From the IMG/VR virus record IMGVR_UViG_2778261068_000007, positions 1-37,264 of that record: a stretch of DNA of 37,264 nucleotides; one strand, given 5' to 3'. Source of the stretch: a virus. Its lineage: Duplodnaviria > Heunggongvirae > Uroviricota > Caudoviricetes. The notes below the pieces were generated by a model. It was not told the DNA's origin. It saw nothing but the letters and a program-made list of their open reading frames with translations, and searched no databases. Position 1 is the first letter of the stretch. Each line of letters starts with the position of its first letter. The position numbers were made by a program, and so were the translations under genes. Below, piece by piece: positions 2,212 through 37,264 of this stretch.

Positions 2212-2260
2212 TCGTGAAACCCCAGCGTTACAAGACCACCATGCCCCCAGCGTTCCATGA

Positions 2261-8853: not shown

Positions 8854-8859
8854 CCCTCC

Positions 8860-9171: not shown

Positions 9172-9234
9172 CACAACATCAGGGCGCATCCGCCCTGATG
9201 ACTTTAATCCGGGAACATAAACAAGGGGGACACA

Positions 9235-9576
9235 ATGCAACACATTGACAGAGAAAAAGCGCAGCGACTGATTGAGCGGATGGAAGCGCTGGCGAAAGAA
9301 GAAAATGTCAACATCCAAAAAATAGCAGAATGTGGCCAGATAGTTCTTCGTCGTGAAAAAGACATCAAGCAACTGATGTCTGGCGAAACCAGCAAAACAC
9401 GGATTCCAGGCGAGAAAACGATTTATTGTAGCTTCTGCAATAAATCCCAGTACGAAGTCACAAAGGTGATTGCCGGACCGTCTGTTTACATCTGCAATGA
9501 GTGCGTGGATTTGTGCAATGAAATTATCAGGAGAGAAGCGACTGACCATGAAGAAGCGCGGAGATGCAACGATTAA
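9235..9576 (+). CDS. ClpX N-terminal zinc-binding-domain (ZBD)-only protein
   Basis: C-terminal half [40 protein letters not shown] is near-identical in pattern to the remembered ClpX N-domain ([40 protein letters not shown]), including the C4 zinc ligands; no AAA+ module follows. Confidence 0.7.
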
Positions 9577-9644
9577 GTCGGGTAATGATATTGAGCAGGC
9601 GACTCACTGGATGCCGATGCCAGAAGCGTTTCAGGAGGTTAACC

Positions 9645-9920
9645 GTGGCTAACCTGCAACTTGCCGTCAAAGGTGAATACTTCGATGCCATGATTCGCGG
9701 AGAGAAAACAGAAGAGTATCGCCTGGTTAATTCATACTGGTCTCGCCGTATATTGGATAAGAGCTATGATCGATTGATTATTACTAAGGGGTATCCGAAA
9801 CGCGACGATTTAAGCCGCAGAATTGATGTCCCATATGGGGGATATGAGATCAAGGTGATAACACATCCACATTTTGGACCAGAGCCAGTAAAAGTATTTG
9901 CTATTAAGTTGACTCAATGA
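9645..9920 (+). CDS. ASCH/PUA-like small protein
   Basis: GTG start at 9645 with strong RBS aggagg 6 nt upstream (track ORF starts at 9564); KGEYFDAMIRGEKTEEYR resembles ASCH-type motifs; family assignment tentative. Confidence 0.45.
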   Translation: MANLQLAVKGEYFDAMIRGEKTEEYRLVNSYWSRRILDKSYDRLIITKGYPKRDDLSRRIDVPYGGYEIKVITHPHFGPEPVKVFAIKLTQ

Positions 9921-10180
9921 CCGATACCACTAAGAAAAAGACGTTAAATAACATACATGAAAAGTATGATTATTTTACGGATACCGCTTGCTTGCTGACA
10001 TCTGAAGAACAAAAGATAGCCCAACTTTTAGGCGATGCATGGAACCTGTATTTAACATTGCCAGTTGAGCATCCAATGGGTAGAGATGAATTTTGCCGGG
10101 CAATTCATCATTGCCAAAATATGGTGTTGGCACGCCCTGCCATCAGGGCGCTGGCCAGTAAGGGGCAAGGCTATAAATAG
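9917..10180 (+). CDS. Hypothetical protein
   Basis: 87-aa ORF overlapping the upstream stop (ATGA), followed by a terminator. Confidence 0.4.
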   Translation: MTDTTKKKTLNNIHEKYDYFTDTACLLTSEEQKIAQLLGDAWNLYLTLPVEHPMGRDEFCRAIHHCQNMVLARPAIRALASKGQGYK

Positions 10181-10186
10181 ATGAGC

Positions 10187-10214
10187 AAAACGCCCTCCTC
10201 CAGGGCGTTTATTT
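10187..10214 (+). terminator. Rho-independent terminator ending the early/accessory operon
   Basis: aacgccct-cctcc-agggcgtt stem-loop followed by TTTATTT. Confidence 0.6.
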
Positions 10215-10494
10215 CAATGCACAATAGTGCACAAATTTGCACAATTTTTTTGAACAACTTTTTACCCTTCCGGCCCGCGTGGCGGCTGGATCCGTCAAGG
10301 ATCCGTGCATGCACAAAAAAACGCATTTTTTCTGCGCGCAGGTGACGGGGGAACAGCCCGCGTTTCAGGGGGTAAATAGCATTCCCTGAGCGATGTCGCA
10401 GCGACACAACAGAATGGCTGTATTTCTCACGCTGAGCGTGAAAAAGACGTAAGGGTTTTTGATTTGATGGGTTGAAAGGTAAGGCCGTCAAAAT

Positions 10495-10525
10495 CGCACT
10501 GAGGCGGCAGGAACATGCAGTCAAC
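10495..10525. other. Candidate cos (cohesive end) site
   Basis: gaggcggcaggaacatgc (10501-10518) resembles the remembered P2/186 cos core (GGCGAGGCGGGGAAAGCAC); lies in the 450-bp non-coding gap next to the portal gene, as in P2. Confidence 0.25.
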
Positions 10526-10668
10526 GCGGTGGGATTGCGTAAGAGCCTGACCGTCGATGATGGCAATAAGCTGGAAGGCGTCGTGAAATTATCTGACTGA
10601 TACAGGAGCTGGAGAGTCGGGGCATAAATTTTTTATGCCCCGGCGAAGCAGCAGACAAGCGAAGCGCG

Positions 10669-21877: not shown

Positions 21878-24103
21878 ATGAGCACCACAACACGAAAATT
21901 TAAAACCGTTATCACCGATACGGGTGCAAAAAAATTAGCACAGGCAGCCGCACCAGATGGCAAACCCGTCCGCCTGACACATATGGCCGTGGGTGACGGC
22001 GGCGGTACTTTACCCACGCCAGACAGTAAGCAGACCCGTCTCGTGCATGAGGTGTGGCGACATACCGTTAATCGCGTCTTCCTGGACGCAACACATCAGA
22101 ACCGCATTATTGCGGAGCTGGTTATTCCTCCAGAAACGGGCGGATTCTGGATCCGGGAAATTGGTGTGTTTGATGAGCACGGCGATTTAATCGCGGTGGG
22201 CAATACTGCCGAAAGTTACAAGCCAGCCGTTGCCGAAGGGTCCGGGCGTGCGCAAACATTTCGCACCATCCTGACCGTATCCAGCACGGCCACCGTGGCG
22301 CTTACCGTGGATAACACCATGGTGATGGCCACAGTGGATTACGTGGATGACAAACTAAAAGAGCATGAACAGTCACGACGTCACCCGGATGCCTCGCTGA
22401 CCGCAAAAGGCTTTACTCAGTTAAGCAGTGCGACCAACAGCACGTCTGAAGCACTGGCCGCAACGCCGAAAGCGGTAAAGGCTGCATATGACCTTGCTAA
22501 CAGGAAATATACCGCACAGGATGCCACCACAGAGCAAAAAGGCCTTGTCCAGCTCAGTAGCGCCACTAACAGCGTGTCTGAAACGATGGCGGCAACGCCG
22601 AAAGCGGTAAAGGCCGCCTATGACCTTGCTAACGGGAAATATACTGCACAGGACGCCACCACAGCGCGAAAAGGCCTTGTCCAGCTCAGTAGTGCAACCA
22701 ACAGCCCGTCTGAAACGCTGGCTGCGACGCCAAAAGCTGTTAAGACGGTAATGGATGAAACGAACAAGAAAGCGCCGCTGTCGAGTCCGGCACTCACCGG
22801 AACGCCAACCGCACCAACTGCGCCAAAGGGTACTAACAATACTCAGATAGCAAACACGGCGTTCGTTATGGCCGCGATTGCCGCACTTGTAGACTCATCA
22901 CCTGACGCACTGAATACGCTGAACGAGCTGGCTGCGGCACTGGGCAATGACCCGAACTTTGCGACCACTATGACCAACGCGCTTGCGGGCAAGCAGCCGA
23001 AAGACGCCACCCTGACGGCGCTGGCCGGGCTTGCTACTGCGGCAGACAGGTTTCCGTATTTTACAGGGAATGACACCGCCAGCCTGGCAACTCTGACAAA
23101 AGTCGGGCGGGATATTCTGGCTAAAGCGACCGTTGCCGCCGTTATCGAATACCTCGGTTTGCAGGAAACGGTAGAGTTAGCGGCAGGGGCGGTACCAGCA
23201 ACACGCAAAGTAAACGGGCGTGCGTTAACCAGTGATATAAATGTTACTTCGCAGGATATTTTTAATGGGCAGAGCATTTCTATTGGTGCTAATCAAAACT
23301 TAAATGATTATATGACTCCTGGTCTGTATCATCAGTCGCTCAACGTTAATACAAGCTCTGCATTAAACTACCCGGAGAATGGCGCCGGAAATTTAATTGT
23401 GTTAAAAAATGCTGGCGTAAAACAAATTTATCATGTGTATAACTCCTCAAGAGTGTGGTCACGTAGCAAATATTCATCAGAACCATGGACACCGTGGGCA
23501 CGAGAATATAATTCACAAAGCAAACCGACCCCGGCAGAGCTCGCAGTATTGGCATTAGCTGGCGGTAGCATGTCAGGGAGTATTAAATTTATAAATGATG
23601 CCTTCCTGATTTGGGAAAGGAACACCGACTGGGCGAAAATCGGATTTAAAAATGATTCAGATTCCGATACTGACTCATACCTGTGGTTTGAAACTGGTGA
23701 TAATGGCAATGAATATTTCAAATGGCGTATCAGGGCTGGAAGCGCAACAAAAGACTTGATGTTTTTGAAGTCTGATGCGCTCAGAGTCACTGGTCAGGTT
23801 ATACCATCTAATTACGGTAATTTTGATTCCCGTTATCAGGCTAAAAATACCGCGTCCAAAGCGGCGAATGGCTGGCATAAAGATGCCTCTACGGGAGTTA
23901 TTACACAGTGGGGATATATTTCTAACGCTGGAGCGGGATTAACATTTCCGGTGGCTTTTCCATCCGCCTGCGCAAGCATAACAATTACTAACGCACACGG
24001 GCGATTTGACTACAGTATTGCTGTTAACTCACTATCCAGAACCGGGGCAAAATTTAACAGTGAAGGTAATGGCAATATGTACTGGACAGCTATAGGTTAC
24101 TAA
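21878..24103 (+). CDS. H: Tail fibre protein, P2 gpH-like, with invertible C-terminal variable part
   Basis: 741 aa; conserved N-terminal region, internal 43-aa tandem repeats, AT-rich C-terminal third beginning at the gix-like crossover site (23142-23167). Confidence 0.9.
22409..22760 (+). repeat. About 2.7 tandem copies of a 129-bp repeat inside the tail fibre gene
   Basis: Encodes [44 protein letters not shown] three times; DNA copies nearly identical. Confidence 0.6.
23142..23167. repeat. Left gix/hix-like inversion crossover site
   Basis: ttatcgaatacctcggtttgcaggaa; inverted match to the 26020-26045 site and similar to remembered Mu gix (TTCCTGTAAACCGAGGTTTTGGATAA). Confidence 0.7.
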
Positions 24104-24104
24104 T

Positions 24105-24518
24105 ATGACGATTTATTACAGCCCATCAACGAAAGGTTTTTACGACGATAAATTAAAAAACGACTACCAGAATAATGACTCATGGCCAGAAGACCTTACT
24201 GAAATATCAGAGCGATGGTATAACTATCTTTTGCAAAAGCAGTCAGAAGGAAAAACCATCAATATCAATGAATATGGTCAGCCAGTAGTTACGGAACCAG
24301 AGCCGCCAACTCAGGAAGAGTTAACAGGACAAGCAGAGAGGCAAAAATCTAAACTTCTGGCGGAAGCGGAATCTTTTATATTACCACTGGAGCGAGCCGT
24401 AAAACTGGGGATGGCTACTGATGCTGAGCGAGAAATGCTGGAGTCGTGGGAGCGTTACAGCGTTCTGCTCAGCCGCGTGGATACGGCAAATCCAGAATGG
24501 CCACAAAAGCCTGAATAA
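24105..24518 (+). CDS. G: Tail fibre assembly chaperone, P2 gpG-like
   Basis: 137 aa directly downstream of H; inside the invertible segment. Confidence 0.8.
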
Positions 24519-24523
24519 AAAAT

Positions 24524-24541
24524 AAGGCCCGAACGGGCCTT
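24524..24541. terminator. Bidirectional terminator hairpin between the convergent chaperone genes
   Basis: aaggccc-gaac-gggcctt between the G stop (24518) and the opposite-strand stop (24545), flanked by A/T runs. Confidence 0.6.
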
Positions 24542-24544
24542 CTC

Positions 24545-25078
24545 TCATTCTGGTTGTTCGGGGAACGTGACTGGCAGGACGGAGGTATCCGTAGACTCTA
24601 CTTTCTGCGCGTAGAGCAGCCACTCGGTCAATTTTTGTTTATTCTCAGCAGAAATAATTCCAAGTCGTAGCTGAGAATCCCATAGCTGAGTTTTATCCCT
24701 GACGAGTTGTAACAGGTTTTGCTTCTCATTTTCCGCCTGTTGTCTCTGTTCTTCTTCGGTATATTCCCGCTTTATCACTGCGCCATCTTTGAACATCCAG
24801 TTACCAGAAATATCGACCCGCCTATTGGCTGTAATATCAGGAACCTCAACAACGCTTAAACCTTCGGGATTAATTGTTGATACATCCTTATCTACAGCCA
24901 CAATGATTCCATCGGCAGTGTAAGCAAATTTTATTGTATCTTCCTGAAAGTTTTTCTGTTCTTCATACCAGTTCTTACCGTCTTCCGACCACAACCAGAC
25001 AACACCGAACTGTCGTGTTAATTCATATTGTTCAACGGTTTTTGGATTTCCCGACTTGATGTTTTTTAAATGCATCAT
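24545..25078 (-). CDS. Alternative tail fibre assembly chaperone
   Basis: 177-aa ORF on the opposite strand inside the invertible segment, mirroring G. Confidence 0.75.
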   Translation of the reverse strand: MMHLKNIKSGNPKTVEQYELTRQFGVVWLWSEDGKNWYEEQKNFQEDTIKFAYTADGIIVAVDKDVSTINPEGLSVVEVPDITANRRVDISGNWMFKDGAVIKREYTEEEQRQQAENEKQNLLQLVRDKTQLWDSQLRLGIISAENKQKLTEWLLYAQKVESTDTSVLPVTFPEQPE

Positions 25079-25080
25079 AA

Positions 25081-26070
25081 TTAAATACTTCCCGCATTAT
25101 ACCAGGTGCCATTGATACAATATTGCACTGGCCTTGCCTGTGTTGTATCAATAATTTCATCTTTGTTTGAGTTAACGGAACCTGTAACAACGTAACCAGA
25201 TTTATCGCCCCAGCCAGGACCATTCCATGTTTGCGCTGATGATTTTGTACCTAATCGGATACCTGTAATAAACCGCGTATTACATTCCGCTTTAGTATAT
25301 GCCCCAACATCTGCCGCTGATGGTTTTCGGGTTGTGGTGTAAAACTCTGACCAGTCAGCCTCGAAGCCATAACCATCACGCGCTGAACGATAATAAATAC
25401 CGCCGTTCTTATAATTTACGCGGAACTGAACAGCAGGGCAGCTACCCGCGTTCATATTGAAATGAAGAATTAATGTTGATGCACCTTTTAGGTCTGCATC
25501 ATAAACACCGCTATTCCAGTTCCAGCCAACAGCTTTATCATTTGCAACCCTACTGCCTGTTATCCCTAAAGCAAAAGCAGCCTGCTGATTTTTCGTGTTG
25601 TAGTCACGTCGCCAGCCAGGTAAATACTCTGAACCGTGGTTAATATATATAAATTGTGCATTAGTGGTGCCACCACCGCTAGAGGTACTCGGTGTGGTTA
25701 TACGAATGGTCATGGCGCCTTTATTGCCCATAACTTCAATAACGCAACCCGCAAGGTGAATAAGTCCACATCCGGTGTCAGTAATAATTTTATTATTGCC
25801 GTATGACCAGGAGCATTTACACATCCAGTATGGATGATTGAAGGCCCATTGAGATTCCAGCCATTCAATAAATTGCGCCGTCGTCCAGTTTCCTGCACCT
25901 GTGCTAATAGAACCATGAAAAGAGCGGCAAGCACCTATTGTTTGCGTAAATTTATCTTTGTTTGGAATATCTGCGCCGTTCTGGTTTTTCTGCAACGCAC
26001 CAGAAGCCTGATTTACCGTTTCCTGCAAACCGAGGTTTTTGATAATGGTCGTTTCTGGCCCACATGGCAT
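25081..26070 (-). CDS. Alternative tail fibre C-terminal segment, currently promoterless
   Basis: ORF runs up to and across the right gix-like site; its crossover-encoded peptide NLGLQETV matches H (YLGLQETV); inversion would fuse it to the constant N-terminal part of H. The functional exon is probably 25081..about 26045. Confidence 0.7.
   Translation of the reverse strand: MPCGPETTIIKNLGLQETVNQASGALQKNQNGADIPNKDKFTQTIGACRSFHGSISTGAGNWTTAQFIEWLESQWAFNHPYWMCKCSWSYGNNKIITDTGCGLIHLAGCVIEVMGNKGAMTIRITTPSTSSGGGTTNAQFIYINHGSEYLPGWRRDYNTKNQQAAFALGITGSRVANDKAVGWNWNSGVYDADLKGASTLILHFNMNAGSCPAVQFRVNYKNGGIYYRSARDGYGFEADWSEFYTTTRKPSAADVGAYTKAECNTRFITGIRLGTKSSAQTWNGPGWGDKSGYVVTGSVNSNKDEIIDTTQARPVQYCINGTWYNAGSI
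26020..26045. repeat. Right gix/hix-like inversion crossover site
   Basis: ttcctgcaaaccgaggtttttgataa; its reverse complement differs from the left site at about 3 of 26 positions. Confidence 0.7.
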
Positions 26071-26099
26071 GATTTGTGCCTTTGAGCGGGAGATTCAAC

Positions 26100-26699
26100 G
26101 TGCTGATTGGCTATGTAAGGGTATCAACAAATGACCAGAACACGGATTTGCAACGCAATGCGCTCAATAGCGCAGGATGTGAACTGATTTTTGAAGATAA
26201 AATCAGCGGAACAAAGTCAGCCAGACCGGGATTGAAAAAACTGCTCAGAACACTGTCAGAAGGCGATACGCTGGTTGTCTGGAAACTGGACAGGCTGGGC
26301 AGAAGCATGAAACACCTGATCACACTGATTGAGGAATTACGGGAAAAAGGTGTCAATTTTCGTAGTCTGACGGACAGCATTGACACATCAACACCCATGG
26401 GGCGCTTCTTTTTTCACGTCATGGGGGCTTTAGCTGAAATGGAACGCGAACTGATAGTTGAACGTACCAGGGCAGGACTGGCAGCAGCCCGCGCACAGGG
26501 GCGCATTGGTGGGCGTCGCCCGAAACTGACAAAAGAGCAACATGAGCAAATAGCAAGGCTGATTAAAAACGGCCATGACAGAAAACAACTGGCCATAATT
26601 TACGGTATTGGTATATCGACGATTTATCGTTACCACCCCGCGGGAGAATCAACCGGAACAACAGAGAAGACCAGAGGAAACAAAAAACCGCTAATCTGA
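26100..26699 (+). CDS. Serine DNA invertase, Hin/Gin/Cin/Pin family
   Basis: LIGYVRVSTNDQNTDLQRNAL...LVVWKLDRLGRS...GRFFFHVMGALAEMERELIVERT...AAARAQGRIGGRRPKLT matches the remembered Hin sequence including the catalytic Ser region; GTG start 26100 with RBS gggag. Confidence 0.9.
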   Translation: MLIGYVRVSTNDQNTDLQRNALNSAGCELIFEDKISGTKSARPGLKKLLRTLSEGDTLVVWKLDRLGRSMKHLITLIEELREKGVNFRSLTDSIDTSTPMGRFFFHVMGALAEMERELIVERTRAGLAAARAQGRIGGRRPKLTKEQHEQIARLIKNGHDRKQLAIIYGIGISTIYRYHPAGESTGTTEKTRGNKKPLI

Positions 26700-27221: not shown

Positions 27222-30059
27222 TTACTCTTTATCATAAAAGCTGCCACGCCCGGCACGGGTACGCCGCTCCAGTTCTGCCCTGACCATTTCGCCGACCAGT
27301 TTCGCCAGTTCGCGGGGATTCTGCGTAACAACGTTATGCAGATGGACATGAATTTCACCACCAAATCCGGGGGTCGCAGCCTCCCGGCTGCGGGAAGATG
27401 CGGAAACGGGCGCAACTGGCGCACGTGCGGCCTCCACGACCGGACGGGAGCTTGCTGCAACAACAGGGGGCAGCGCCGGATATAACGGAGCCGGGGGCGC
27501 GGGAGTGATATTGATTGCAGGAAGAGCCTTGTTGCTCTGCGCAACCTTTCGCTCCTGCCACTCCCCACGAACAGCAAGCGCACGGGGCAAATTCTTAAAG
27601 ACAATATCACCGGGGCCGATACGCTTTTTCGTCTCATCAACCAGCTTGCCTGTGTTATCTGCAATTTTGCTGAGCCTGCGCAGCGTGCCAGTGTTGTTGT
27701 CCGTGAGCGGCTTGTTGTCTTTAGGCTTATCGCCTCCGGTCCCTGTTTCCGCAGACTTCGGTGGATTGATTTTTGCCAGGTCCCCCTGAAGCAAAGCAAC
27801 CTTGTCCTGAAGAATGGCCGCACGCTGCGCGTCTTCGATTTTCTTTCTCGCCCTTTCCGCTTCATCTGGAAGGACACCAAGTTTTTCCAGTATCCATGCC
27901 AGCGTATCCAGCAGCATTTTTGCAGGCGTCAGGACAAGCTGTAACGCACCGCCAAGAACGTTGCCGAATACCTCGCCAGCACTGGTGTATTTATCCAGCG
28001 TTTCCTTGCTGGATTCCATCGGTGACAGCAGCGATGTAAACCAGTTAAAGACCTGAATCACGCCATCACGAACCAGTTCGAAAACAGGGCCAAACCGTTC
28101 AAAGGTTTCGCGTAACGGGGCCAGCCGCTCCATAATCCCGCTGAACACCCCGGAAAAAAATGCCCTGATTGGGTCCCAGTATTTCCAGATGAGAACGGCA
28201 GCTCCGGCAAGCGCAGCTACGATAAGACCGACCGGGCTGAACAACGCCCCGATAGCGCCTCCCAGTAAAGAGACGGAACCCGACGCCATTCCCCACAACG
28301 CTGGCAGGACCCTGACAGCATTCATTGATCCGGTCAGGAGGGAAAAACCAAGACGCAGTTTTGCCAGCGGGCCAGCAAGCACCCCAAGAGCCAGTGACAA
28401 CGAGCCAACCGTTGCAGTCATTGCCAGCAACGCACCGCCTGCAATCAGTAGCTGGCGCGTCAGTACCGGATGGGCCTGCGCCAGCGAGGTGATTTTTTCA
28501 AGCACCCGCGTGAGCCACTGCGTGACAGAACGCAGCGGACCGTCAACCAGATCACTGATGCGAATACGAAGACCTTCCCATGCGCTGTCGAGATTTTTCA
28601 GGTCCCCATCAAGATTATCGGCCATTACTTTTGCGACGCGATCGGCCTCTCCCCTTGCCCCCTGCAATTCTCTGGTCAGTTTTTGCAGCTCTCCTGAACC
28701 AGCCGCCGCAACAAGCGTCTGCAAACCAACGAACGCCTCTTCTCCGGCGATGTCCTTGAAGAAGGAGACCTGGTCCACCTGTCCGTATTTTTGTGTCGCC
28801 TTATAGAGATCAAGCAGCACATCCTCCATCGGGCGCATTTTGCCTCTGGCGTCAGCAACTGACACCCCCAGCTCTTTCAGTGCATCAGCCGCAGCTTTTG
28901 GCGGTGATGCAAGGCGGGACAGACTTGCGCGCATGGCCGTACCAGCATCGCTTCCGCGAAGACCATTATTGGCAAGCATCCCGGCCATGGCCGCCGCTTC
29001 TTCAAGACTGATACCAAGTTTTGCGGCAACCGGACCGGTATACTTCATGGTTTCGCCCAGCGCGCGTAAATCAGTATTGGTCCGGGTGAATGCCGCTGTC
29101 AGCGTATCGCCAACCCGGTCCATTTGATCGGCTGTCAGGTTGAACTGTGTGAGGATATTGGAGCCTATATCAGCCGTCTCGCCGAGTTCGACGCCACCTG
29201 CCAGCGCCATATTAAGAACACCGGGCAATGCGGCCTGAATGGCCTGCGGAGTAAAACCAGCCATTGCCAGAAAGCTCTGCCCACTGGCGGCATCACTCGC
29301 AGTAAACTGTGTTTCAGAGCCAAGTTTTAACGCCTGCTCACGCAGCGCCTTAAACTGCGGGCTGTTTTTGTCGATTCGCGTCAGTGCCTGAACGCGGGAC
29401 ATCTCTTTCCCGAACCCGATCGCAGGCTGCAAAAAACGCCCGGCAGCATAGCCGCCAGCCGCTGCCGCACCAATTGCCAGCGCACCACCTGTTTTCAGTT
29501 TTCCCGCAGTTTCCTGCGCGCGCGAATACCGCTCACGCGCCCGCGTTACACGCGCAAGCGCCTGCCGCTCGCGTTCAAGCTGGTTGTTGTATTGTTCGGT
29601 GCGTCTGATGGCCTGCTGAATGGTGTTATCGCTGCCTGTCAGGGAAATGCCGTGGCGTTTCAGCTCTCCGCCAAGCTCCCGCATTTTCTGAATTTCCCGC
29701 GTGCGCGATTCATTCAGGCGTTCAAGCCGGGTGCTTAACTGCTGCATCAGCTTTTGTTGTTTTTCGCTGAGCACAGTACCCGTGCGTTGTAACTGATGAA
29801 GGGCGTTAAGCTGGCGTCGTGCTTTCACGATGCCAGCATCCGCTTTACTGACAGCATCGCGGGCGCGCTCAAATGAACGCGCCTGACGCTCGAGATTTTT
29901 GATTGCCCCCTGTGTTCGCTGGATGGAGTCACCAAGCTGTCCCATCAGGCGGCGGGCGTTTTCGGCTGGCCGGGTCAGCCTGTCAACAGCACTGAAGGCG
30001 ACCCGGATGTCAAGAGTCTTCATTGTCTGCATTCCCGCTGCGAAGTGCCGCCCGCTCAC
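27222..30059 (-). CDS. T: Tail tape measure protein, P2 gpT-like
   Basis: 945-aa Ala/Gly-rich protein with coiled-coil N-terminal region, between the E/E' chaperones and U. Confidence 0.85.
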   Translation of the reverse strand: MSGRHFAAGMQTMKTLDIRVAFSAVDRLTRPAENARRLMGQLGDSIQRTQGAIKNLERQARSFERARDAVSKADAGIVKARRQLNALHQLQRTGTVLSEKQQKLMQQLSTRLERLNESRTREIQKMRELGGELKRHGISLTGSDNTIQQAIRRTEQYNNQLERERQALARVTRARERYSRAQETAGKLKTGGALAIGAAAAGGYAAGRFLQPAIGFGKEMSRVQALTRIDKNSPQFKALREQALKLGSETQFTASDAASGQSFLAMAGFTPQAIQAALPGVLNMALAGGVELGETADIGSNILTQFNLTADQMDRVGDTLTAAFTRTNTDLRALGETMKYTGPVAAKLGISLEEAAAMAGMLANNGLRGSDAGTAMRASLSRLASPPKAAADALKELGVSVADARGKMRPMEDVLLDLYKATQKYGQVDQVSFFKDIAGEEAFVGLQTLVAAAGSGELQKLTRELQGARGEADRVAKVMADNLDGDLKNLDSAWEGLRIRISDLVDGPLRSVTQWLTRVLEKITSLAQAHPVLTRQLLIAGGALLAMTATVGSLSLALGVLAGPLAKLRLGFSLLTGSMNAVRVLPALWGMASGSVSLLGGAIGALFSPVGLIVAALAGAAVLIWKYWDPIRAFFSGVFSGIMERLAPLRETFERFGPVFELVRDGVIQVFNWFTSLLSPMESSKETLDKYTSAGEVFGNVLGGALQLVLTPAKMLLDTLAWILEKLGVLPDEAERARKKIEDAQRAAILQDKVALLQGDLAKINPPKSAETGTGGDKPKDNKPLTDNNTGTLRRLSKIADNTGKLVDETKKRIGPGDIVFKNLPRALAVRGEWQERKVAQSNKALPAINITPAPPAPLYPALPPVVAASSRPVVEAARAPVAPVSASSRSREAATPGFGGEIHVHLHNVVTQNPRELAKLVGEMVRAELERRTRAGRGSFYDKE

Positions 30060-30228
30060 GCCAGCTAACCACTTCGCCGGGCGTCATCATGAAGATTTCG
30101 GCGGGCGACCAGTTAAAAATAACGGCAATATCTGCCACAAAGTCTTCTATGTGCTCAAAGCACACAACCGTGATCAGGCTTCCGTCGCCTGTTCGTTCTT
30201 CCCGCCAGAGTCCGCACCGCTCAAAAAA
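30010..30228 (-). CDS. E' extension reached by programmed -1 frameshift from E
   Basis: In the E reading frame the - strand reads gta aat ttt ttg agc (heptamer T TTT TTG); a -1 slip continues as FERCGLWREER... in the overlapping ORF (track ORF 30010..30246), ending inside the start of T. Confidence 0.5.
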   Translation of the reverse strand, partial: FFERCGLWREERTGDGSLITVVCFEHIEDFVADIAVIFNWSPAEIFMMTPGEVVSWRERAALRSGNADNEDS

Positions 30229-30539
30229 TTTACGGCAACCACACATAACTGAATAAAGTCACGGGATGCCATTTTTTTGATCGTCACTTCATCCAGTCGC
30301 GGTGATGTCACGCGTGACAACAGCGTAAACATGGCTTCCGCTTTCAGATTCAGCACATCAGACAGCGACAAATCTCGCAGAGATCCAGCCTGCTCAATAG
30401 CCCCGGTGATCTCCACATACGTGATTTTTTCGCCGCCTCGCTCAATTGGCTGGGTAAGTTTTACGCCACGCTCGCTGGTTTCTTTCACAGTGTCAGTAAC
30501 TACCGTGTTTTCGGTATCGATGTTTTTCGTCTCTTTCAT
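30174..30539 (-). CDS. E: Tail assembly chaperone, P2 gpE-like
   Basis: Immediately upstream of T; ends shortly after a TTTTTTG slippery heptamer. Confidence 0.65.
   Translation of the reverse strand: MKETKNIDTENTVVTDTVKETSERGVKLTQPIERGGEKITYVEITGAIEQAGSLRDLSLSDVLNLKAEAMFTLLSRVTSPRLDEVTIKKMASRDFIQLCVVAVNFLSGADSGGKNEQATEA
30222..30228 (-). other. Slippery heptamer TTTTTTG for the E/E' frameshift
   Basis: + strand caaaaaa at 30222-30228; the same heptamer I recall for P2 E/E'. Confidence 0.6.
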
Positions 30540-30593
30540 CAGAAAACTCCTTTCAGTCAGAGGCGACGCACTGCGCCGCCTGCATATTACTTA

Positions 30594-31106
30594 TCAGCCG
30601 AGCCCAAGCGCGGAGCGGATGCGGTCGGGTACAATGTCCTTGCCATCCTTCCGGTAGATGTGGTTCGCCAGGTCAATTTCCCACACCGGACGATCGTTAA
30701 TACTCAGCTTGTAGTAGGTGTTTTTGACAGCGTAAGTGTGTGACGTGGCTTCGCCCTGTTTGGCCTCCCCCATATCAATTTCCGTCACACGCCCGCGCAT
30801 CTCGATTTCATACAGGTCGCTTTCTGCATCGGTGTAGTATTCACCCGCAAAACGCAGCAGCGTGCCGTCCATTGTTCCGCCATATTTAAGGAACAGCGCA
30901 CGAACGGCGCCACCCATGACAAAACTCGCATCAAGCGCGGAATCGTCCAGGCCGAGGTCGATACTCACCGCTCCCAGCATGCCACCACCACGATAGCTGT
31001 CGGTTTTACGCGTCAGTTTAGGCGGGGTGACAGACGTCACCTTACCCACTTCATTTTCACCATCCACAAACAGCGTAAAAAAACGAAGATGTTTTGGTAC
31101 GGCCAT
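30594..31106 (-). CDS. FII: Tail tube protein, P2 gpFII-like
   Basis: 170 aa (P2 FII about 172 aa), downstream of the sheath gene. Confidence 0.85.
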   Translation of the reverse strand: MAVPKHLRFFTLFVDGENEVGKVTSVTPPKLTRKTDSYRGGGMLGAVSIDLGLDDSALDASFVMGGAVRALFLKYGGTMDGTLLRFAGEYYTDAESDLYEIEMRGRVTEIDMGEAKQGEATSHTYAVKNTYYKLSINDRPVWEIDLANHIYRKDGKDIVPDRIRSALGLG

Positions 31107-32290
31107 TAAGCACCTCCAAGCACTGCAAATGCAGGACCAAAGAACTCATCAGTGAACGCCTGGTAAAGCTCCGCATCTTCCAGCGGAGGAATGGGCGTAT
31201 ATTTATAGCGAATACGCACGCGCCCCTGTCGTAATTCTGTGGTGCTGTTATCCACGATGTCATACCAGCACGATGCGCCAATCAGTTTCCCGGCAGTAAC
31301 CAGCGAATCCAGTTTTGCCCTGATGCCACTGATGACGTCCTTCACGTTCGCGGGCGTCAGTGGACTGTCGATGGTTTCAAACTGCGCTTCCGCAATTGAA
31401 TCAGCCAGCACCTGTGCGGTTCGGGTATACACCTCAAAGATGTAGGCGTTCGTTTCCGGTGTGCGGTTGCCCCAGAAGCGGAACCCGTTGCGGCGAATGA
31501 TGGTTGTGATTTCTTTGTTGTTGAGGCTGTTGGCGTCGCTGTCATCAGCCTGCAACGACCAGAACACATGCCTGGACATCCCCAGCACATTTTTGACCGG
31601 AACGTTGGACAGCGATTTGTGCCAGCCCTGCTCATGGTCAATGTACGCACGAAGGCCGCACGCATAGGCTGGCGCGGGGAAAACCTCATTCTCGCCACTT
31701 TTCGGGTTGTAAGCGATGAAGTCCGGCCACAGGAGCATCAGCTCGCGTTCGTTGAATTTTTCACGGTATGCAATGGCTTCAGCCATCGTGTTACAGCCAT
31801 GACAGGAGGCATACACAAACGCGCGCAGTTTACCTGCAATCACGCACAGGGATTTTGTCACCGCCTCCGTGTCCAGCCCCGGCGCGGCCAGAATACGCGG
31901 ACGGTATCCGATGCTTTCATCCTGCTCTGCAACAAGCAGCGCATACATCCCCGTATAGCTGCCGTCGGATTCAGAACCACCAATAACCAGTTGATCCTGT
32001 GTTTTTCCGTCTTCTTCTTTGTGTTCAGCCACGCGAACGACGATCACCTTTGTGCTCACCTGGTCTGCAATGGGTTTCAGCGCACGGTACAGCGTCCCCG
32101 TTGTCCCGCATTTTCCCAGCACGTCATTGACGCGGGTCACTAATGCAGGCTTGTTCAGCGGGAACAGCTTCGCGTCCGCATCGTCCGCCGTTGCCACGAT
32201 ACCGATAACGCTGGAATCAACGTCGTTAATTGCTGTTACCAGGTCGGTACTTTCCGTAACGCGGGCGCCATGAAAGCGAGTTTCACTCAT
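31106..32290 (-). CDS. FI: Tail sheath protein, P2 gpFI-like
   Basis: FPLNKP, PRIL..PGLDT, KLRAF, RELM..WPDF, DHEQGWHKSLSNV, RRNGFRFWGNRT and YTRTAQV blocks match remembered gpFI. Confidence 0.9.
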   Translation of the reverse strand: MSETRFHGARVTESTDLVTAINDVDSSVIGIVATADDADAKLFPLNKPALVTRVNDVLGKCGTTGTLYRALKPIADQVSTKVIVVRVAEHKEEDGKTQDQLVIGGSESDGSYTGMYALLVAEQDESIGYRPRILAAPGLDTEAVTKSLCVIAGKLRAFVYASCHGCNTMAEAIAYREKFNERELMLLWPDFIAYNPKSGENEVFPAPAYACGLRAYIDHEQGWHKSLSNVPVKNVLGMSRHVFWSLQADDSDANSLNNKEITTIIRRNGFRFWGNRTPETNAYIFEVYTRTAQVLADSIAEAQFETIDSPLTPANVKDVISGIRAKLDSLVTAGKLIGASCWYDIVDNSTTELRQGRVRIRYKYTPIPPLEDAELYQAFTDEFFGPAFAVLGGA

Positions 32291-32447
32291 AGTTCCAGCC
32301 CCTTGTATCCGTTAAATGATTCGGCAACAATCATCACCCACCACGCGCGCAATCTCATCCCTGCGCCGTTCTTGCCGCCCGGCGACAACAAAAAGCAGTA
32401 ACCCCGCCCGCACACACATGCGACCATGCTGCACAGGGAGGGAGCCG

Positions 32448-33548
32448 ATGATTGACACCACCATGCAACTGTTCAACCAGAGTACTGACCCCGTGAAGAT
32501 GCCTGATTTTGATATTCTCGCGGAGGGGAAAACGCTGTCCGGTGTGGCAGAACGCCTGATGAGCCTGTCACTGACCGACAACCGGGGATTTGAAGCAGAC
32601 CAGCTCACCATCACGCTGGATGATGCTGATGGTCAGTTGCAGTTGCCGCCACGGGGCGCTCGCCTGACGGTTCTCATTGGCTGGAAAGGCGAACCGCTGA
32701 CAGAAAAAGGCACTTACATTGTTGATGAAATTGCTCATGAAGGACCGCCCGACAGACTGACCATTTCAGCCAGAAGCGCAGATTTTCGGGATGAATTTAA
32801 CGTCAAGCGCGAAGTATCCTGGCATGATGTGACCGTTGAACGCGTGGTGTCTGCAATTGCTCACCGATACGGCCTGAAACCGCAAATCAGCGAAATGCTG
32901 ATGGATATCGAAATCGACCACGCAGACCAGACCGAAGAAAGCGACATGTCCTTCCTTACACGCATGGCGGAAATGTTGGGCGCAATCACCACGGTAAAAA
33001 GCGGTAATCTGTTATTCATTATGCCAGGTGGTGGCGTGAACGCGCAGGGAAAACCATTGCCATCGTTTGCCATCACACGCAGCAGCGGCGATCGCCATCA
33101 GTTTCGCATTGCTGACCGCGAGGCGTATACAGGTGTACGCGCCTACTGGCTTGATCTTAATTACGGGAAAAAGAAAAAAGTCAGCGTGAAACGCCGCAAA
33201 CCGAAAAAGGAGAAAAGCAGCAGCCGGGAAGGCGACTATATGGCAGGCGCGGAAGGCAACGTGTTTGTGTTACGCAAGACTTATCAGAACGAGCAGGCAG
33301 CAAGACGCGCAGCGGCGGCAAAGTGGCAGCAGCTACAACGCGGAGCCGCATTATTCTCCATCACGCTGGCGCGTGGACGTGCAGAACTCTATCCCGAAAT
33401 GCATGGCACAGTGGCAGGCTTCAAAAGCGACATCGACAATCAGGACTGGATTATCGCAAAAGCCGAGCACACCATTGATGGCAGTGGTTTTATCACGCAG
33501 CTTGAGCTTGAAGCAAAAATCCCGGAATGGATAGCAGAAACAGAGTGA
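32448..33548 (+). CDS. D: Tail protein D, P2 gpD-like
   Basis: Start placed at ATG 32448 after RBS gggagggag (track ORF begins upstream at 32316); about 366 aa. Confidence 0.8.
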   Translation: MIDTTMQLFNQSTDPVKMPDFDILAEGKTLSGVAERLMSLSLTDNRGFEADQLTITLDDADGQLQLPPRGARLTVLIGWKGEPLTEKGTYIVDEIAHEGPPDRLTISARSADFRDEFNVKREVSWHDVTVERVVSAIAHRYGLKPQISEMLMDIEIDHADQTEESDMSFLTRMAEMLGAITTVKSGNLLFIMPGGGVNAQGKPLPSFAITRSSGDRHQFRIADREAYTGVRAYWLDLNYGKKKKVSVKRRKPKKEKSSSREGDYMAGAEGNVFVLRKTYQNEQAARRAAAAKWQQLQRGAALFSITLARGRAELYPEMHGTVAGFKSDIDNQDWIIAKAEHTIDGSGFITQLELEAKIPEWIAETE

Positions 33549-33710
33549 GCAACTTAAATGTATTAACTCAGAACGGATCAACACACTCACAACATAGAGT
33601 CAATATAGCTGCTCGCTTTGTTCCAGCAAGGATGCCTATTTCTAAGGAAAAACAGAGCAGAAACATATGGTGTTTTTCTACCTGACATCAGGGGTGGTAA
33701 GAATCATGCT

Positions 33711-33740
33711 TTGATAACCAATTGATAACTATTATTATAT
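33711..33740 (+). promoter_or_regulatory. Candidate sigma70-type promoter for the PIN-domain gene
   Basis: TTGATA (33711-33716), about 17-18 bp spacer, then ATTATA/TTATAT; AT-rich intergenic region; RBS gagg before ATG 33774. Confidence 0.25.
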
Positions 33741-33773
33741 TAATCTAACACCATTGACATAGTTGAGGTTTGA

Positions 33774-35276
33774 ATGAACAAAAAGCTGTATTTATTCCCA
33801 GACTCAAACATTTTTCTACAATGCAAGGCCTTGACGCAGGTAAATTTTTCCGAGATTACTGCTTGTGATGAAGTATGTATCATTATTACAAGGCCCATTC
33901 AGCAAGAGATTGACCGCCAGAAAGGGCAAGGTAATTCCCGCCTATCCAAAAAAGCAAGGAAGGCTGCTAGCCTATTTAATCAAGTAGTTGATTCAACTGA
34001 CATGACTCTTGTTATTCGTGAACGCTCGCCGCGAGTTTTTCTTACCATGGATCTAAGCCTGAAACCATGTGAACAGTTATCTGAACAATTGGATTATCAG
34101 GAGGCCGACGATCGTTTTGTTGGTATTGCGGCAGGGTATTGCGCTGACGATCCAGATTCGGAGGTGGCAATCATTACCAATGATAGCGGTCCACGTTTTT
34201 CAGCAATAAAACATAATATAATCTGCTATAAAGTGCCTTCTTCATGGTTGCTTCCTGCTGAGCCAGATGAAAAGGATAAACAAATTAAATTGCTGGAAGC
34301 TAAGCTGAAGCAATTCACTCAGTCTATGCCCGATTTCAGCATTAAAGCAGCCGATGACGAGCAATTAAATATTGTACTTCCTTATTATACAGCTTTATCT
34401 GAATATGAAGTTGATAATTTGCTTTGTCAACTAACGGATGCATTCCCATTGGTTACAAACTTTGACAATGAACAAACTACCCCACAATCACTAGAAAAAA
34501 TCATCAAGTCATTTAGTCAACAGGAGTATTTCCCTGTATCAGCAGATGATATTTCTCTTTATAAAGAAAAACATTATCCACTTTGGAAAAAGCAGTGTGA
34601 AGAAATACTGAAAAACTGTCATACTCATATTAATCCGAAGGCAATAAAATACCCGCTGTCGTTTTTATTACAAAACACAGGTTATACTATCGCTGAACGT
34701 GCTGTGGTAACATTTACAGCAAAAGGAGATTTTCGTCTGTGTGGATTTAATTGGGAGATAATGGAAGAGCTGACTGAAAGCAAAAGGATTGACCTACCTT
34801 CAGCCCCTACCGCACCCAAAGGAAAATGGCGTAGTGTATGTGGCGTAACAGAAAGAATGCCTTACGCTTGGGGAGCTTTGGAAACACCGCTATCCAGTAT
34901 AATTTCAAAAGAAATTGGTCCTTTGTTATCTCTTACTCCAACAGAAAGGGATAAAAACGATTTTTATTATAAAGAAAAGAGAAATGTGCCAGTTCAAGTT
35001 GTATCGCTGGAATGCGAAGAGTGGCGTCATCAAGTCAAAGAAGAAATATTCCCGTTGTTCGTATATACAGCCAACAAACCAAAGAAAGTGAATGGTGCAA
35101 TTGAGGTGAGAGTTGATGCAAATAACCTTACCAATCCGGTCATTAAAACATTTAAATTAAAAATAACTATAGAAGAACATAGTGCATTTTCAACCATAAC
35201 AGAAATGGTGCAGACATACATTCAAGAGCAGAAGAAAAGACAGAAAAGTTCTATTAGCGCACAAATCAAAACATGA
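33774..35276 (+). CDS. PIN-domain protein with a roughly 350-aa uncharacterised C-terminal region
   Basis: N-terminal 150 aa carries the PIN acidic residues in order (LFPDSNIF, QQEID, EADDRF, IITNDSG); gene and flanks are AT-rich unlike the phage backbone; inserted between D and ogr. Confidence 0.6.
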   Translation: MNKKLYLFPDSNIFLQCKALTQVNFSEITACDEVCIIITRPIQQEIDRQKGQGNSRLSKKARKAASLFNQVVDSTDMTLVIRERSPRVFLTMDLSLKPCEQLSEQLDYQEADDRFVGIAAGYCADDPDSEVAIITNDSGPRFSAIKHNIICYKVPSSWLLPAEPDEKDKQIKLLEAKLKQFTQSMPDFSIKAADDEQLNIVLPYYTALSEYEVDNLLCQLTDAFPLVTNFDNEQTTPQSLEKIIKSFSQQEYFPVSADDISLYKEKHYPLWKKQCEEILKNCHTHINPKAIKYPLSFLLQNTGYTIAERAVVTFTAKGDFRLCGFNWEIMEELTESKRIDLPSAPTAPKGKWRSVCGVTERMPYAWGALETPLSSIISKEIGPLLSLTPTERDKNDFYYKEKRNVPVQVVSLECEEWRHQVKEEIFPLFVYTANKPKKVNGAIEVRVDANNLTNPVIKTFKLKITIEEHSAFSTITEMVQTYIQEQKKRQKSSISAQIKT

Positions 35277-35519
35277 GGGTGTACTCAAATAATACAATGC
35301 TATAGTAAATCTATAAGTGCATAACTATTTCCTGATCTTTTCCCAAAATAGATGACAGGATAAAAAACATTCCAATCATTTACAGGCTTTGGATAAATCT
35401 TATCAAAGCCTATTTCTTCAAGAGTTAAATCACCGCTTTTCGCTCGAAACGGACTGGCTGTTGGAGTATGAGCCAGAACAACTTAGAATAGCCCCTGCAC
35501 TACGTTAAGGGAGGTCGCT

Positions 35520-35780
35520 ATGTTCCGTTGTCCGCTTTGCCGCGCATCTGCCCGTATCCGCACCAGTCGTCCTGAAAATGATTCAAACACCGTGCGGCAA
35601 AAGTATTACCAGTGTAACAATCTAGAATGCGGCGTATGCTTCTCAACACTGGAAGCTTTCCATAAATTCACATCGAAACACGCCTCCGGCGTTCACTCTT
35701 CAGAAGGTATCCCGTGGCATGAGCTGCCAGCTTCACACAGGGGAAACAATCAGATGAGTTTGCCTTTGCCTCAAAATTAA
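35520..35780 (+). CDS. ogr: Late transcription activator, Ogr-like zinc finger
   Basis: MFRCPLCRASARIRTSRP...YYQCNNLECGVCFSTLEAF parallels remembered Ogr (MFHCPLCQHAAHARTSRY...YHQCQNVNCSATFITYESV); RBS aagggagg. Confidence 0.85.
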   Translation: MFRCPLCRASARIRTSRPENDSNTVRQKYYQCNNLECGVCFSTLEAFHKFTSKHASGVHSSEGIPWHELPASHRGNNQMSLPLPQN

Positions 35781-35840
35781 CAGGCAGAATTGCCGGAGTA
35801 ACAAAAAAGCGATAGATTACGCGCGGGTGCCTTTCGGCTA

Positions 35841-36053
35841 ATGGCTGGAGGGAATACCCAAAGGCCGGATGTGGAAAGGCCCCGGAAAACATCTCTGTTT
35901 AACCGAGGCCCTGACCATCTAACCTTAGCAAGTGATAGGTTAGCGCCTCCACAAAAAAGGAGCAAGCGCTATGTCGCAAAAATCGCTGATAGCCATCACG
36001 TTCTGCGTGACGGTAATCCTCATCATCTGGATGCTGCACGGTTCGCTGTGTGA
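35841..36053 (+). CDS. mok-like overlapping reading frame of the hok-type locus
   Basis: 70-aa ORF in another frame overlapping the start and most of the hok-like ORF, the same arrangement and size as mok. Confidence 0.35.
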   Translation: MAGGNTQRPDVERPRKTSLFNRGPDHLTLASDRLAPPQKRSKRYVAKIADSHHVLRDGNPHHLDAARFAV

Positions 36054-36111
36054 AATACGGATGAGCTTCTGGGGAGCGGAGTTTGCGGCGTTCTTACAGT
36101 GTAAGCAGTAA
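35971..36111 (+). CDS. hok: Hok/Gef-family type I toxin (46 aa)
   Basis: MSQKSLIAITFCVTVILIIWMLHGSLCEIRMSFWGAEFAAFLQCKQ: N-terminal TM helix then SLCEIR and AAF, as in remembered Hok (..[25 protein letters not shown]..); RBS aaggag 8 nt upstream; absent from the ORF track because under 60 aa. Confidence 0.7.
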   Translation: MSQKSLIAITFCVTVILIIWMLHGSLCEIRMSFWGAEFAAFLQCKQ

Positions 36112-36196
36112 GGAAACCGCGACGGGGGAGCAATCCCCCGTCAATCGGTTGCTAAGGCTGGCCGAAGTGGCACCCTATCCCATGGACACAAACAAG

Positions 36197-36232
36197 AAAA
36201 CCCGCAGCGTAAATACTGCGGGTTTTCTTTTT
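36197..36232 (+). terminator. Rho-independent terminator of the hok-like transcript
   Basis: aaaacccgcag-cgtaaata-ctgcgggtttt followed by CTTTTT. Confidence 0.6.
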
Positions 36233-36273
36233 GGTACCCTCACAAATGAGGGCACCATCCGTAAGCAATAGGC

Positions 36274-36293: not shown

Positions 36294-36330
36294 CATATCG
36301 GCAGCAGTAACCACATAAGAGGTGCCGCAG

Positions 36331-36528
36331 ATGATGCAAAATATACGATGCAAAAATTGCTATAAATTACTTGCCCGCGCCTCATTTCACCACATTGAAA
36401 TAAAATGTCCGCGTTGCAAAACCCTTAACCAGGTAACGAGAGCCATCGAGCCCCCCACACACATGAGGAGCTATGACCGTGGGGATCGCAATCCAGCACA
36501 AAACAGCCCATACCCCGGAATACACTAA
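36331..36528 (+). CDS. com: Mu Com-like zinc-finger protein (candidate translational activator)
   Basis: MMQNIRCKNCYKLLARASFHHIEIKCPRCKTLNQV parallels remembered Mu Com (MKSIRCKNCNKLLFKADSFDHIEIRCPRCKRHIIM); RBS aagagg 8 nt upstream; 3' end overlaps the methyltransferase start by 56 nt. Confidence 0.7.
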   Translation: MMQNIRCKNCYKLLARASFHHIEIKCPRCKTLNQVTRAIEPPTHMRSYDRGDRNPAQNSPYPGIH

Positions 36529-37264
36529 GATTTACCAGACTGACAATGCCACGCTCTGCTGTGGGAATGCACTGGAAATATTGCCGCTGATTGAGCCAGA
36601 AAGCATTGATGCCTTAATCACTGATCCGCCTTACAGCTCAGGGGCAACACACAAGGCCGGACGCACCAACCAGGGCAGCCACGCAAAATATCTGAACGGC
36701 GAGAGCCTTCACCGCTTTGATGGATTTGCGGGTGAAAATATGGATGCCCGTTCGTGGGCTTACTGGACACAATTATGGATGGCACAGGCATACCGCGCAG
36801 TCAGGCCGGGCGGTTATGCCCTGGTGTTTACTGACTGGCGGCAACTGCCTGCTTTAACCGATGCGTTTCAGGCCAGCGGCTTTACATGGCGTGGAATCAT
36901 TGCGTGGAACAAAGGGAGGGGGTCACGAACACCCCATACCGGGTATTTCCGGCATCAGTGCGAATACATCGTCTGGGGCAGTAAAGGCCATTTAGGTAAA
37001 TCGCCTTCGGGACCGTTCGACGGCTGCATGACGTTCCCGGTTATCCCGTCAAAGAAACTGCATCCGACCGGAAAACCAGAAGAGTTAATGGCGGAGCTGG
37101 TCAGGACTGCGAATAGAGGCGGAACAGTCCTTGATCCTTTTATGGGGTCAGGGACAACGGGTATTGCAGCACTGAAAGCAGGACGCAAATTTATTGGTAT
37201 AGAAACCAGTGATCATTATTTTGATGTAGCAACACAACGGCTCAAAACGGCGATCGAACCATAA
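36473..37264 (+). CDS. DNA methyltransferase, N6-adenine or N4-cytosine, beta-class
   Basis: Catalytic motif ITDPPYSS precedes the AdoMet-binding motif DPFMGSGTT (beta-class order); start overlaps the end of the Com-like gene; alternative GTG start at 36479. Confidence 0.85.
   Translation: MTVGIAIQHKTAHTPEYTKIYQTDNATLCCGNALEILPLIEPESIDALITDPPYSSGATHKAGRTNQGSHAKYLNGESLHRFDGFAGENMDARSWAYWTQLWMAQAYRAVRPGGYALVFTDWRQLPALTDAFQASGFTWRGIIAWNKGRGSRTPHTGYFRHQCEYIVWGSKGHLGKSPSGPFDGCMTFPVIPSKKLHPTGKPEELMAELVRTANRGGTVLDPFMGSGTTGIAALKAGRKFIGIETSDHYFDVATQRLKTAIEP

Follow-up and report, generated by a model that had tools for sequence, protein, structure and literature searches.

A low-GC island between gpD and ogr of a P88-like Escherichia prophage encodes a candidate single-protein PIN-nuclease defence gene

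The window analysed here, the whole 37,264-nucleotide stretch at positions 1 to 37,264 of the IMG/VR virus record IMGVR_UViG_2778261068_000007 (Caudoviricetes), carries a low-GC cargo island between gpD, the gene for late control/tail protein D, and the late activator gene ogr. The island holds one gene, for a 500-amino-acid (aa) protein in which an N-terminal PIN_4 nuclease domain is followed by a module of about 350 aa that belongs to no known family. With moderate confidence, we read this gene as a stand-alone PIN-effector candidate for anti-phage defence or abortive infection, one that would be regulated by its C-terminal module. This reading is supported by the identity of the PIN domain, its catalytic residues, the selection acting on the gene, the fixed architecture of the family, the solitary state of the gene, the hotspot status of its insertion site and the association of its homologues with defence loci. 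Defence is well supported by context, and ‘candidate’ is the right word for the gene.

A PIN_4 domain joined to a conserved C-terminal module

The initial annotation had proposed, from four acidic motifs read in the sequence, an N-terminal PIN domain in the product of the open reading frame (ORF) at 33774..35276 (plus strand), and profile searches, predicted structure and family conservation all bore this out. PIN_4 (PF13638) matched aa 10-151 above the Pfam threshold (33.5 bits against a gathering cutoff of 21.9, E = 6e-8, profile positions 4-128 of 132), and precomputed PF13638 matches were found on most homologues. An AlphaFold2 (AF2) model of the full protein, built on 42 homologues, had a mean predicted local distance difference test score (pLDDT) of 84.5, rising to about 90 over aa 1-160, which form an alpha/beta/alpha fold of three layers that contains a parallel sheet. 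When the PDB was searched by sequence, neither the family profile nor the isolated PIN domain gave a meaningful match. Foldseek matched the modelled N-terminal domain, with a probability of 1.00, to solved structures of SMG6 (2hww), Nmd4 (8rdd and 8rd3), Dis3/Rrp44 (6h25_J and 5k36_K) and AF0591 (1o4w), with target-normalised template modelling (TM) scores of 0.59 for 2hww, 0.71 for 1o4w and 0.60 for 8rdd. Pfam, AF2/Foldseek and conservation together place the PIN_4 domain at aa 1-154 (33774..34235, plus strand).

All four motifs are present in canonical order (FPDSN, aa 8-12; QQEID, aa 43-47; EADDRF, aa 110-115; IITNDSG, aa 133-139) and contain the putative catalytic residues D10, E45/D47, D112 and D137. 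In the model these residues occupy the positions usual for PIN catalytic residues: strand 1 ends at D10, the helix that follows strand 2 contains E45/D47, a helix begins at D112, and D137 comes just after the strand at 130-135. Conservation was assessed in 166 near-full-length family members with a median identity of 31% to the query, in which D10 was retained in 156 of 156 aligned sequences, E45 in 163 of 166, D47 in 162, D112 in all 166 and D137 in 165. Against the Rahnella orthologue, dN/dS was 0.23 at a dS of 0.66. Judged from sequence, the PIN gene is under purifying selection and its active site is intact.

The acidic positions correspond to D1251/E1282/D1353/D1392, as listed for SMG6, and PIN_4 proteins of known activity, such as SMG6, are Mn2+-preferring single-stranded RNA endonucleases (PMC5499597). 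By analogy with the PIN_4 members SMG6 and Dis3, we infer that RNA is the substrate of the PIN domain in the window. The hidden Markov model (HMM) match and the alpha/beta fold of the AF2 model are shared with the PIN_4 nucleases SMG6, Nmd4, Dis3/Rrp44 and archaeal AF0591; unlike any of them, however, the protein continues into a fused 350-aa module, and it is bacterial cargo borne by a mobile genetic element rather than a part of RNA-decay machinery.

Searched separately by HMM, the rest of the protein (aa 155-500; 34236..35273, plus strand) had no Pfam, NCBIfam or PADLOC match and a weak PHROG match, which agrees with the earlier view that these ~350 aa carry no recognizable motif; a fold search of the viral structures in BFVD matched only the PIN part. 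Modelled alone, the module (pLDDT 85.3, predicted TM score 0.73) consists, in order, of a long coiled linker helix (aa 166-183), a small alpha/beta subdomain, a helical pair, an immunoglobulin-like beta-sandwich and a terminal helix. Residues N301, G303, P345, C414, R418, H419 and N451 are invariant (166 of 166), and W271 (165), W417 (163), C275 (162) and H283 (154) are nearly so; C414, W417, R418 and H419 belong to a conserved LECEEWRH motif (35007..35030, plus strand). Within the beta-sandwich lies a hypervariable loop (aa 353-391; 34830..34946, plus strand), where the frequency of the top residue is 0.17, compared with about 0.5 in the flanking regions, the length varies from 17 to 68 aa across the family and pLDDT is below 50. 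A constrained scaffold with a diversifying loop is the pattern that would be expected of a recognition module.

A profile of the C-terminal module retrieved 1,773 clusters at 50% identity among 1.84 billion representatives (1,215 at E <= 1e-10 and 763 at E <= 1e-30). The family ranges from Enterobacterales to Agrobacterium and includes many metagenomic lineages, and its members are typically 480-530 aa long. Among the best 150 of the 1,773 clusters, nearly all have the module from about residue 155 onwards; the longer proteins carry PIN_4 too, the preceding ~155 aa scoring as such, and the shorter ones are best regarded as truncated gene calls because their first residue is the Met inside the PIN ‘GPMxSA’ motif. 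P0072 is apparently a chimera. Since these best 150 either carry PIN_4 or are truncated calls, the two-module architecture is fixed. Swapping of effectors on the C-terminal module was considered and rejected, as no alternative effector was present among the same 150.

Genomic contexts of the family and the gpD-ogr slot

Twelve genomic contexts were sampled, the gpD-ogr slot of the window included, and a conserved partner gene was sought in them; none was found, and the gene is solitary in all 12. Homologues occupy four different cargo slots of P2-like phages. Apart from gpD-ogr, these are gpS-gpV in a Rahnella P2-like prophage, the stretch from the integrase to the host junction in a 186-like prophage and the canonical tin/old defence hotspot, where a 68%-identical homologue separates GpA from portal/terminase on a P2-like contig of IMG/VR. 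Others are found in a phage remnant in Raoultella and in a Pectobacterium integrative and conjugative element (ICE) with a type IV secretion system. In three type I restriction-modification (R-M) loci the homologue directly follows hsdS, one of these loci also holding the PADLOC candidate PDC-M24A/B, and in an integrase-bounded island it abuts a genuine Gabija system (GajA, 3e-208; GajB, 6e-169). In the R-M loci, which belong to distant homologues (L010, 8001-9356; L017, 9001-10497; L021, 9001-10494), the gene shares the operon with MNT/HEPN, PhD/PIN, DUF433 and HigB genes, and because these small genes of toxin-antitoxin (TA) type share the operon, the loci act as multi-cargo defence islands. 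Embedding within R-M or other immune operons is a published criterion for the discovery of defence genes (10.1101/2024.01.29.577857), and a link between antitoxin-less PIN-like genes and type I R-M operons has been noted (PMC5499597). Taken as guilt by association, the contexts of the homologues argue strongly for defence.

In the window, the interval from the gpD stop (33548) to the ogr ATG (35520) spans 1,971 bp (33549..35519) with a GC of 0.381, compared with about 0.53-0.55 in the flanks. In 300-bp windows, GC is 0.31-0.42 in the island and 0.51-0.57 in its flanks, and the island is the lowest-GC stretch in the entire 37 kb. Both boundary genes were identified by Pfam, gpD at 32316..33548 (plus strand; Phage_GPD, E = 1.7e-16) and ogr, an Ogr/Delta zinc-finger late activator, at 35520..35780 (plus strand; Ogr_Delta, E = 4e-13). 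The real start of gpD is probably internal, at about 32440; annotated D genes in relatives are 1,101-1,110 nt long. Partner ORFs were sought in the island and only short, unconserved ones were found, and an Rfam scan gave no match within it. The initial annotation was thus right to describe an AT-rich island with a single 500-aa protein. Its P2 frame, in which D is followed directly by ogr, holds approximately, because the gene order is a P88-like arrangement: the surrounding DNA is a P88-like Escherichia prophage (Xuanwuvirus, Peduoviridae), 92-93% identical to Chuche, P88 and relatives. In phages Chuche and P88 the site is empty, the gpD-ogr spacer being only 42 bp, so the island is an insertion relative to these close relatives. 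Tape measure, gpE-like, tube and sheath genes lie on the minus strand at 27222-33548, diverging from the plus-strand gpD.

The expression signals that had been pointed out upstream of the PIN gene fared unevenly. A Shine-Dalgarno-like GAGG (33765..33768, plus strand) was read directly from the sequence 5 nt 5′ of the ATG, and a sigma-70-like promoter match, TTGATA-16-TATTAT (33711..33738, plus strand), agrees with the consensus at 10 of 12 positions; however, the region contains 8 promoter-like matches, compared with 5.9 +/- 2.2 in shuffles, and since this count is not above expectation we describe the promoter as a consensus match only.

Among 5,426 complete E. coli genomes, 59 carry the island at 99.6% identity, including many Shiga toxin-producing E. 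coli (STEC) of O157, O111 or O26, and in these 59 the sole annotation of its gene is ‘PIN domain-containing protein’; an identical protein is on record from E. albertii too. The same 5,426 genomes include about 1,650 with the sheath-D-ogr-hok backbone, and this difference argues that the PIN gene is not a conserved structural component of these phages. In many O157:H7 genomes (for example, EDL933 and NZ_CP124740.1), IS30 and IS1203 interrupt the homologous gpD region and the backbone is decaying.

Comparison of related P2-like prophages, which had been suggested as a check on the site, revealed a variable D-ogr junction, empty in Chuche and P88 and filled with different cargos in others. Phage 500465-2 carries there a 340-aa minus-strand protein with an R-x4-H motif (HEPN_RiboL-PSP, 22.5 bits, below the Pfam cutoff of 28.4) and phage 520873 a 132-aa ORF, and other E. 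coli cargos include DUF3800, DUF2971, YecA-family and ParA-family proteins as well as hypotheticals. The DUF2971 cargo matches PDC-S31 (E = 5e-27), a PADLOC single-gene candidate rather than a validated system; the remaining cargos have weak PADLOC matches or none. The inserts are 989-1,971 bp long and all of low GC (0.33-0.43), and the flanks of the site are 90-97% identical whatever the cargo.

Seven junctions with different cargos, aligned with two empty sites, showed conserved cargo ends of about 25 nt on the left and about 50 nt on the right, common to unrelated cargos. The shared left end is approximately GCAACTTAGATGTATTAGCTCAGA, represented in the window by GCAACTTAAATGTATTAACTCAGAAC (33549..33575), and the shared right end is approximately TCAGTTGGAGTCTGAGCTATTACAACTTAGAATAGC, represented by …GCTGTTGGAGTATGAGCCAGAACAACTTAGAATAGCC…AAGGGAGGTCGCT, which runs into ogr (35455..35519). 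The final ~33 nt of the right end are found in empty sites too, and ‘CAACTTAGA’ stands on both sides of cargos and only once in empty sites. A weak sigma-70-like element, GTTGGA-17-TAGAAT (8 of 12 consensus positions), lies in the right end and faces ogr. A mobile cassette with terminal inverted repeats and a target-site duplication was considered and rejected, as direct and inverted matches between the ends within a locus were not above shuffles; because of this we describe the ends only as conserved recombination flanks, such as are found at other P2 hotspots.

The best explanation of these patterns is that gpD-ogr is a previously undescribed variable slot of P88-like prophages and that the island is horizontally acquired cargo. 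Known defence hotspots of P2-like phages (tin/old at GpA-portal, and Z/fun; Rousset et al. 2022, PMC9122126) likewise hold low-GC, rapidly swapped cargo between core genes, but the slot here differs from both in lying between gpD and ogr of P88-like phages. The text of two P2-hotspot papers makes no mention of ogr, gpD or PIN; one of them names GpA-portal, int-att, int-primase and downstream-of-GpL and, generically, positions ‘within the late genes’.

Known PIN systems, the proposed mechanism and its alternatives

The closest analogue for how the protein works is probably DS-3 (WP_022645725.1; DefensePredictor), a single-protein PIN system validated as a defence in E. coli, which does not protect without its catalytic residues and for which auto-inhibition until infection has been proposed (PMC13092281). 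Like DS-3, the window gene encodes one protein with a PIN nuclease and is accompanied by no antitoxin gene. The two are not the same, with a best BLASTP E value of 4.2 and no detectable homology; moreover, the DS-3 PIN domain is split between the N- and C-termini, whereas that of the window is contiguous (aa 10-151) and is followed by the beta-sandwich module. The 500465-2 cargo is not DS-3 either: both are 340 aa long, but this is a coincidence, the cargo being different and HEPN-like.

Other PIN systems were rejected in turn. DS-5 consists of two genes, for a PIN protein and a DUF5830/AcrIF4-like protein (PMC13092281), whereas the window protein is solitary, with no partner gene, and its hhalign probability against the DS-5 PIN protein (WP_021513009.1) was 0.2%. 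HEC-03, an ABC ATPase with a PIN protein, was found by its embedding in another defence system (10.1101/2024.01.29.577857); the island has no ATPase and no PADLOC HEC match. A PIN effector is nonetheless shared with both DS-5 and HEC-03, which use theirs in phage defence. VapBC has in common with the window protein a PIN domain, whose ribonuclease is the toxic activity of VapC, but VapC has a neighbouring and usually overlapping gene for the DNA-binding antitoxin VapB, whereas here no antitoxin gene was adjacent in the 12 contexts and the protein has 500 aa, compared with ~130-150 aa for VapC. PhoH2 (PIN_4 with a PhoH ATPase) was dismissed in view of the lack of any Pfam match in aa 151-500 and the beta-sandwich fold of that part. 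CapRel-SJ46, a prophage-borne fusion of a toxic enzyme to a sensor domain, is triggered by a phage protein; the window protein resembles it conceptually only, in joining a toxic enzymatic domain and a putative regulatory or sensor domain in one polypeptide, and differs from it in folds and chemistry. Neither the accession (WP_001035742.1) nor the N-terminal sequence of the protein was found in the searchable part of the DefensePredictor supplement text. Single-gene nuclease defence and prophage hotspot cargo are well-known kinds of system; the family, its C-terminal module and the gpD-ogr slot appear to be new, as they were absent from the resources and papers searched.

Under the defence reading, the protein would be made in the lysogen from its own promoter. 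Its N-terminal SMG6-type PIN domain would be a metal-dependent endoribonuclease effector, and the C-terminal beta-sandwich module would act as a regulator or sensor that holds the nuclease inactive or untargeted. A cue arising on infection, most likely a phage protein or a nucleic-acid feature, would be read by the hypervariable loop together with the invariant Cys/His/Arg/Asn surface and would activate the nuclease; cleavage of RNA would then block phage, and probably host, gene expression, with translation arrest and an abortive outcome. A bolder and more tentative version is that the family may form a new and widespread single-protein immune system of at least 1,200 clusters at 50% identity, whose previously undescribed beta-sandwich would recognise a phage component through its hypervariable loop and invariant site and would thereby release the SMG6-type PIN RNase, and that gpD-ogr may be an unlisted defence hotspot in ~30% of complete E. 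coli genomes. In that version, the invariant Cys/His/Arg/Asn site is possibly metal- or ligand-binding. Residues C275, H283, C414 and H419 may form a Zn or ligand site.

Several observations weigh against defence. The PADLOC v2.0.0 models matched the protein with 0 families at E <= 1, which, with DS-3 and DS-5 unrelated, agrees with the initial annotation in placing it in no named system, and no paper naming the protein or describing its architecture was found in the literature searched. No phenotype is on record for any family member. The C-terminal fold is a generic beta-sandwich for which the searches made gave no immune-sensor precedent, and, unlike many sensor-effector defence families, this one has no effector swapping on the module. 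Since the promoter amounts to no more than a consensus match, expression of the gene in the lysogen is putative. Two chromosomal contexts (P0027 and P0042) are without mobile-element or defence markers.

Alternatively, the gene may have no dedicated role against phages and act as a selfish module for addiction or stabilisation. It would then be a toxin fused to its (cis)antitoxin: the C-terminal module would restrain the PIN toxin, and cells in which the element is lost or perturbed would die. PIN domains are the classic VapC toxins, TA toxins are predicted to make up 20% of prokaryotic PIN-like proteins (PMC5499597), and the gene, found on prophages, an ICE and R-M loci, lies in the window two genes from a hok/sok-like module. 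We consider this interpretation unlikely, however, because a single stable polypeptide has no obvious differential-decay mechanism for post-segregational killing, because no antitoxin gene occurs in any sampled context and no conserved small ORF in the island, and because the hypervariable loop fits diversifying recognition better than self-inhibition. It also overlaps in part with the defence reading, as TA-like modules in such loci have repeatedly proved defensive.

Defence could instead be direct and non-abortive, the C-terminal module targeting the PIN domain constitutively to features of phage RNA or DNA in a restriction-like manner. Homologues embedded between hsdS and hsdR in three loci are consistent with this, as are the PIN-like nucleases that cleave DNA structures (PMC5499597); an older NCBI name, ‘DNA-binding protein’, points the same way, although a name is not evidence. 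Against it, the PIN_4 relatives of known activity, SMG6 and Dis3, are single-stranded RNA endonucleases, the C-terminal module gave no sign of a fold that binds nucleic acid and no modification or self/non-self partner is present, so direct targeting seems improbable to us. It is very unlikely that the gene benefits the phage itself rather than protecting the lysogen, for instance as an RNase that shuts off the host or processes RNA in the lytic cycle, or as a factor that counters defence: such a role would suit its position, which closes the late tail-gene block and directly precedes the late activator gene ogr, near a Com and DNA methyltransferase pair of typical anti-restriction function, but the gene is dispensable and rare among sibling phages (59 genomes compared with about 1,650 with the backbone), the family is also present in non-phage loci (ICE, R-M operons and chromosomal islands), and a homologue sits in the GpA-portal defence hotspot of other P2-like phages.

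Other features of the prophage and implications

Directly downstream of ogr is a hok/sok-like module (35825-36111) with a 46-aa ORF of Hok/Gef type (35971-36111); its Rfam sok match scores 38.8 bits, below the gathering score of 59, and ~370 bp of the region are ~83% identical to a segment in many Stx-converting phages. Between hok and com, sub-threshold Rfam matches on both strands (Thr_leader and assorted small RNAs) are stacked on one ~60-90 nt segment at 36154-36269, a pattern that points to a strong palindromic hairpin, which may be a bidirectional terminator. An ORF for a Com-like zinc-finger protein (36322-36528) extends over the beginning of an N6/N4 DNA methyltransferase gene (36473->37264; PF01555, E = 2e-33) that runs off the end of the window; the two look like a translationally coupled anti-restriction pair in the style of Mu com/mom. 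Some relatives carry a TM2-domain protein or zinc-ribbon and TagO-like genes at this position (36322-37264), which may be another variable slot.

The canonical GpA-portal hotspot lies at 7894-10668 and holds a gene for a ParM/StbA-type actin-like segregation protein (7894-8853; StbA_N, 7e-82), followed by a low-GC (~0.46) stretch with ~130-aa minus-strand ORFs at 9157-9549 and 10171-10566 that have no Pfam or PADLOC match. At the low-GC edge of the prophage (193-2361), the integrase gene (1234-2361, minus strand) is followed outwards by two ORFs, one for a 184-aa coiled-coil protein (193-747) with weak PADLOC matches of coiled-coil type (ZorA/LmuB segments) and one of 166 aa (731-1231); for P2-like phages, this site has been described as the int-att cargo position. 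GC is low again over a second extended region (23000-26500; 0.43-0.46), which covers the 3′ part of a 741-aa ORF (21878-24103) and the following ORFs on both strands and is probably the tail-fibre tip/chaperone region.

If validated, the gene would extend the single-gene defence systems by a large family of broad taxonomic range, would serve as a compact model for antitoxin-free control of a PIN ribonuclease and would give a function to a conserved domain that now has no Pfam family. The gpD-ogr slot, with its many different cargos, is apparently a rich source of further candidates. Because prophages of STEC (O157, O111 and O26) carry the gene, it could affect the susceptibility of these bacteria to other phages, including Stx phages and therapeutic phages.

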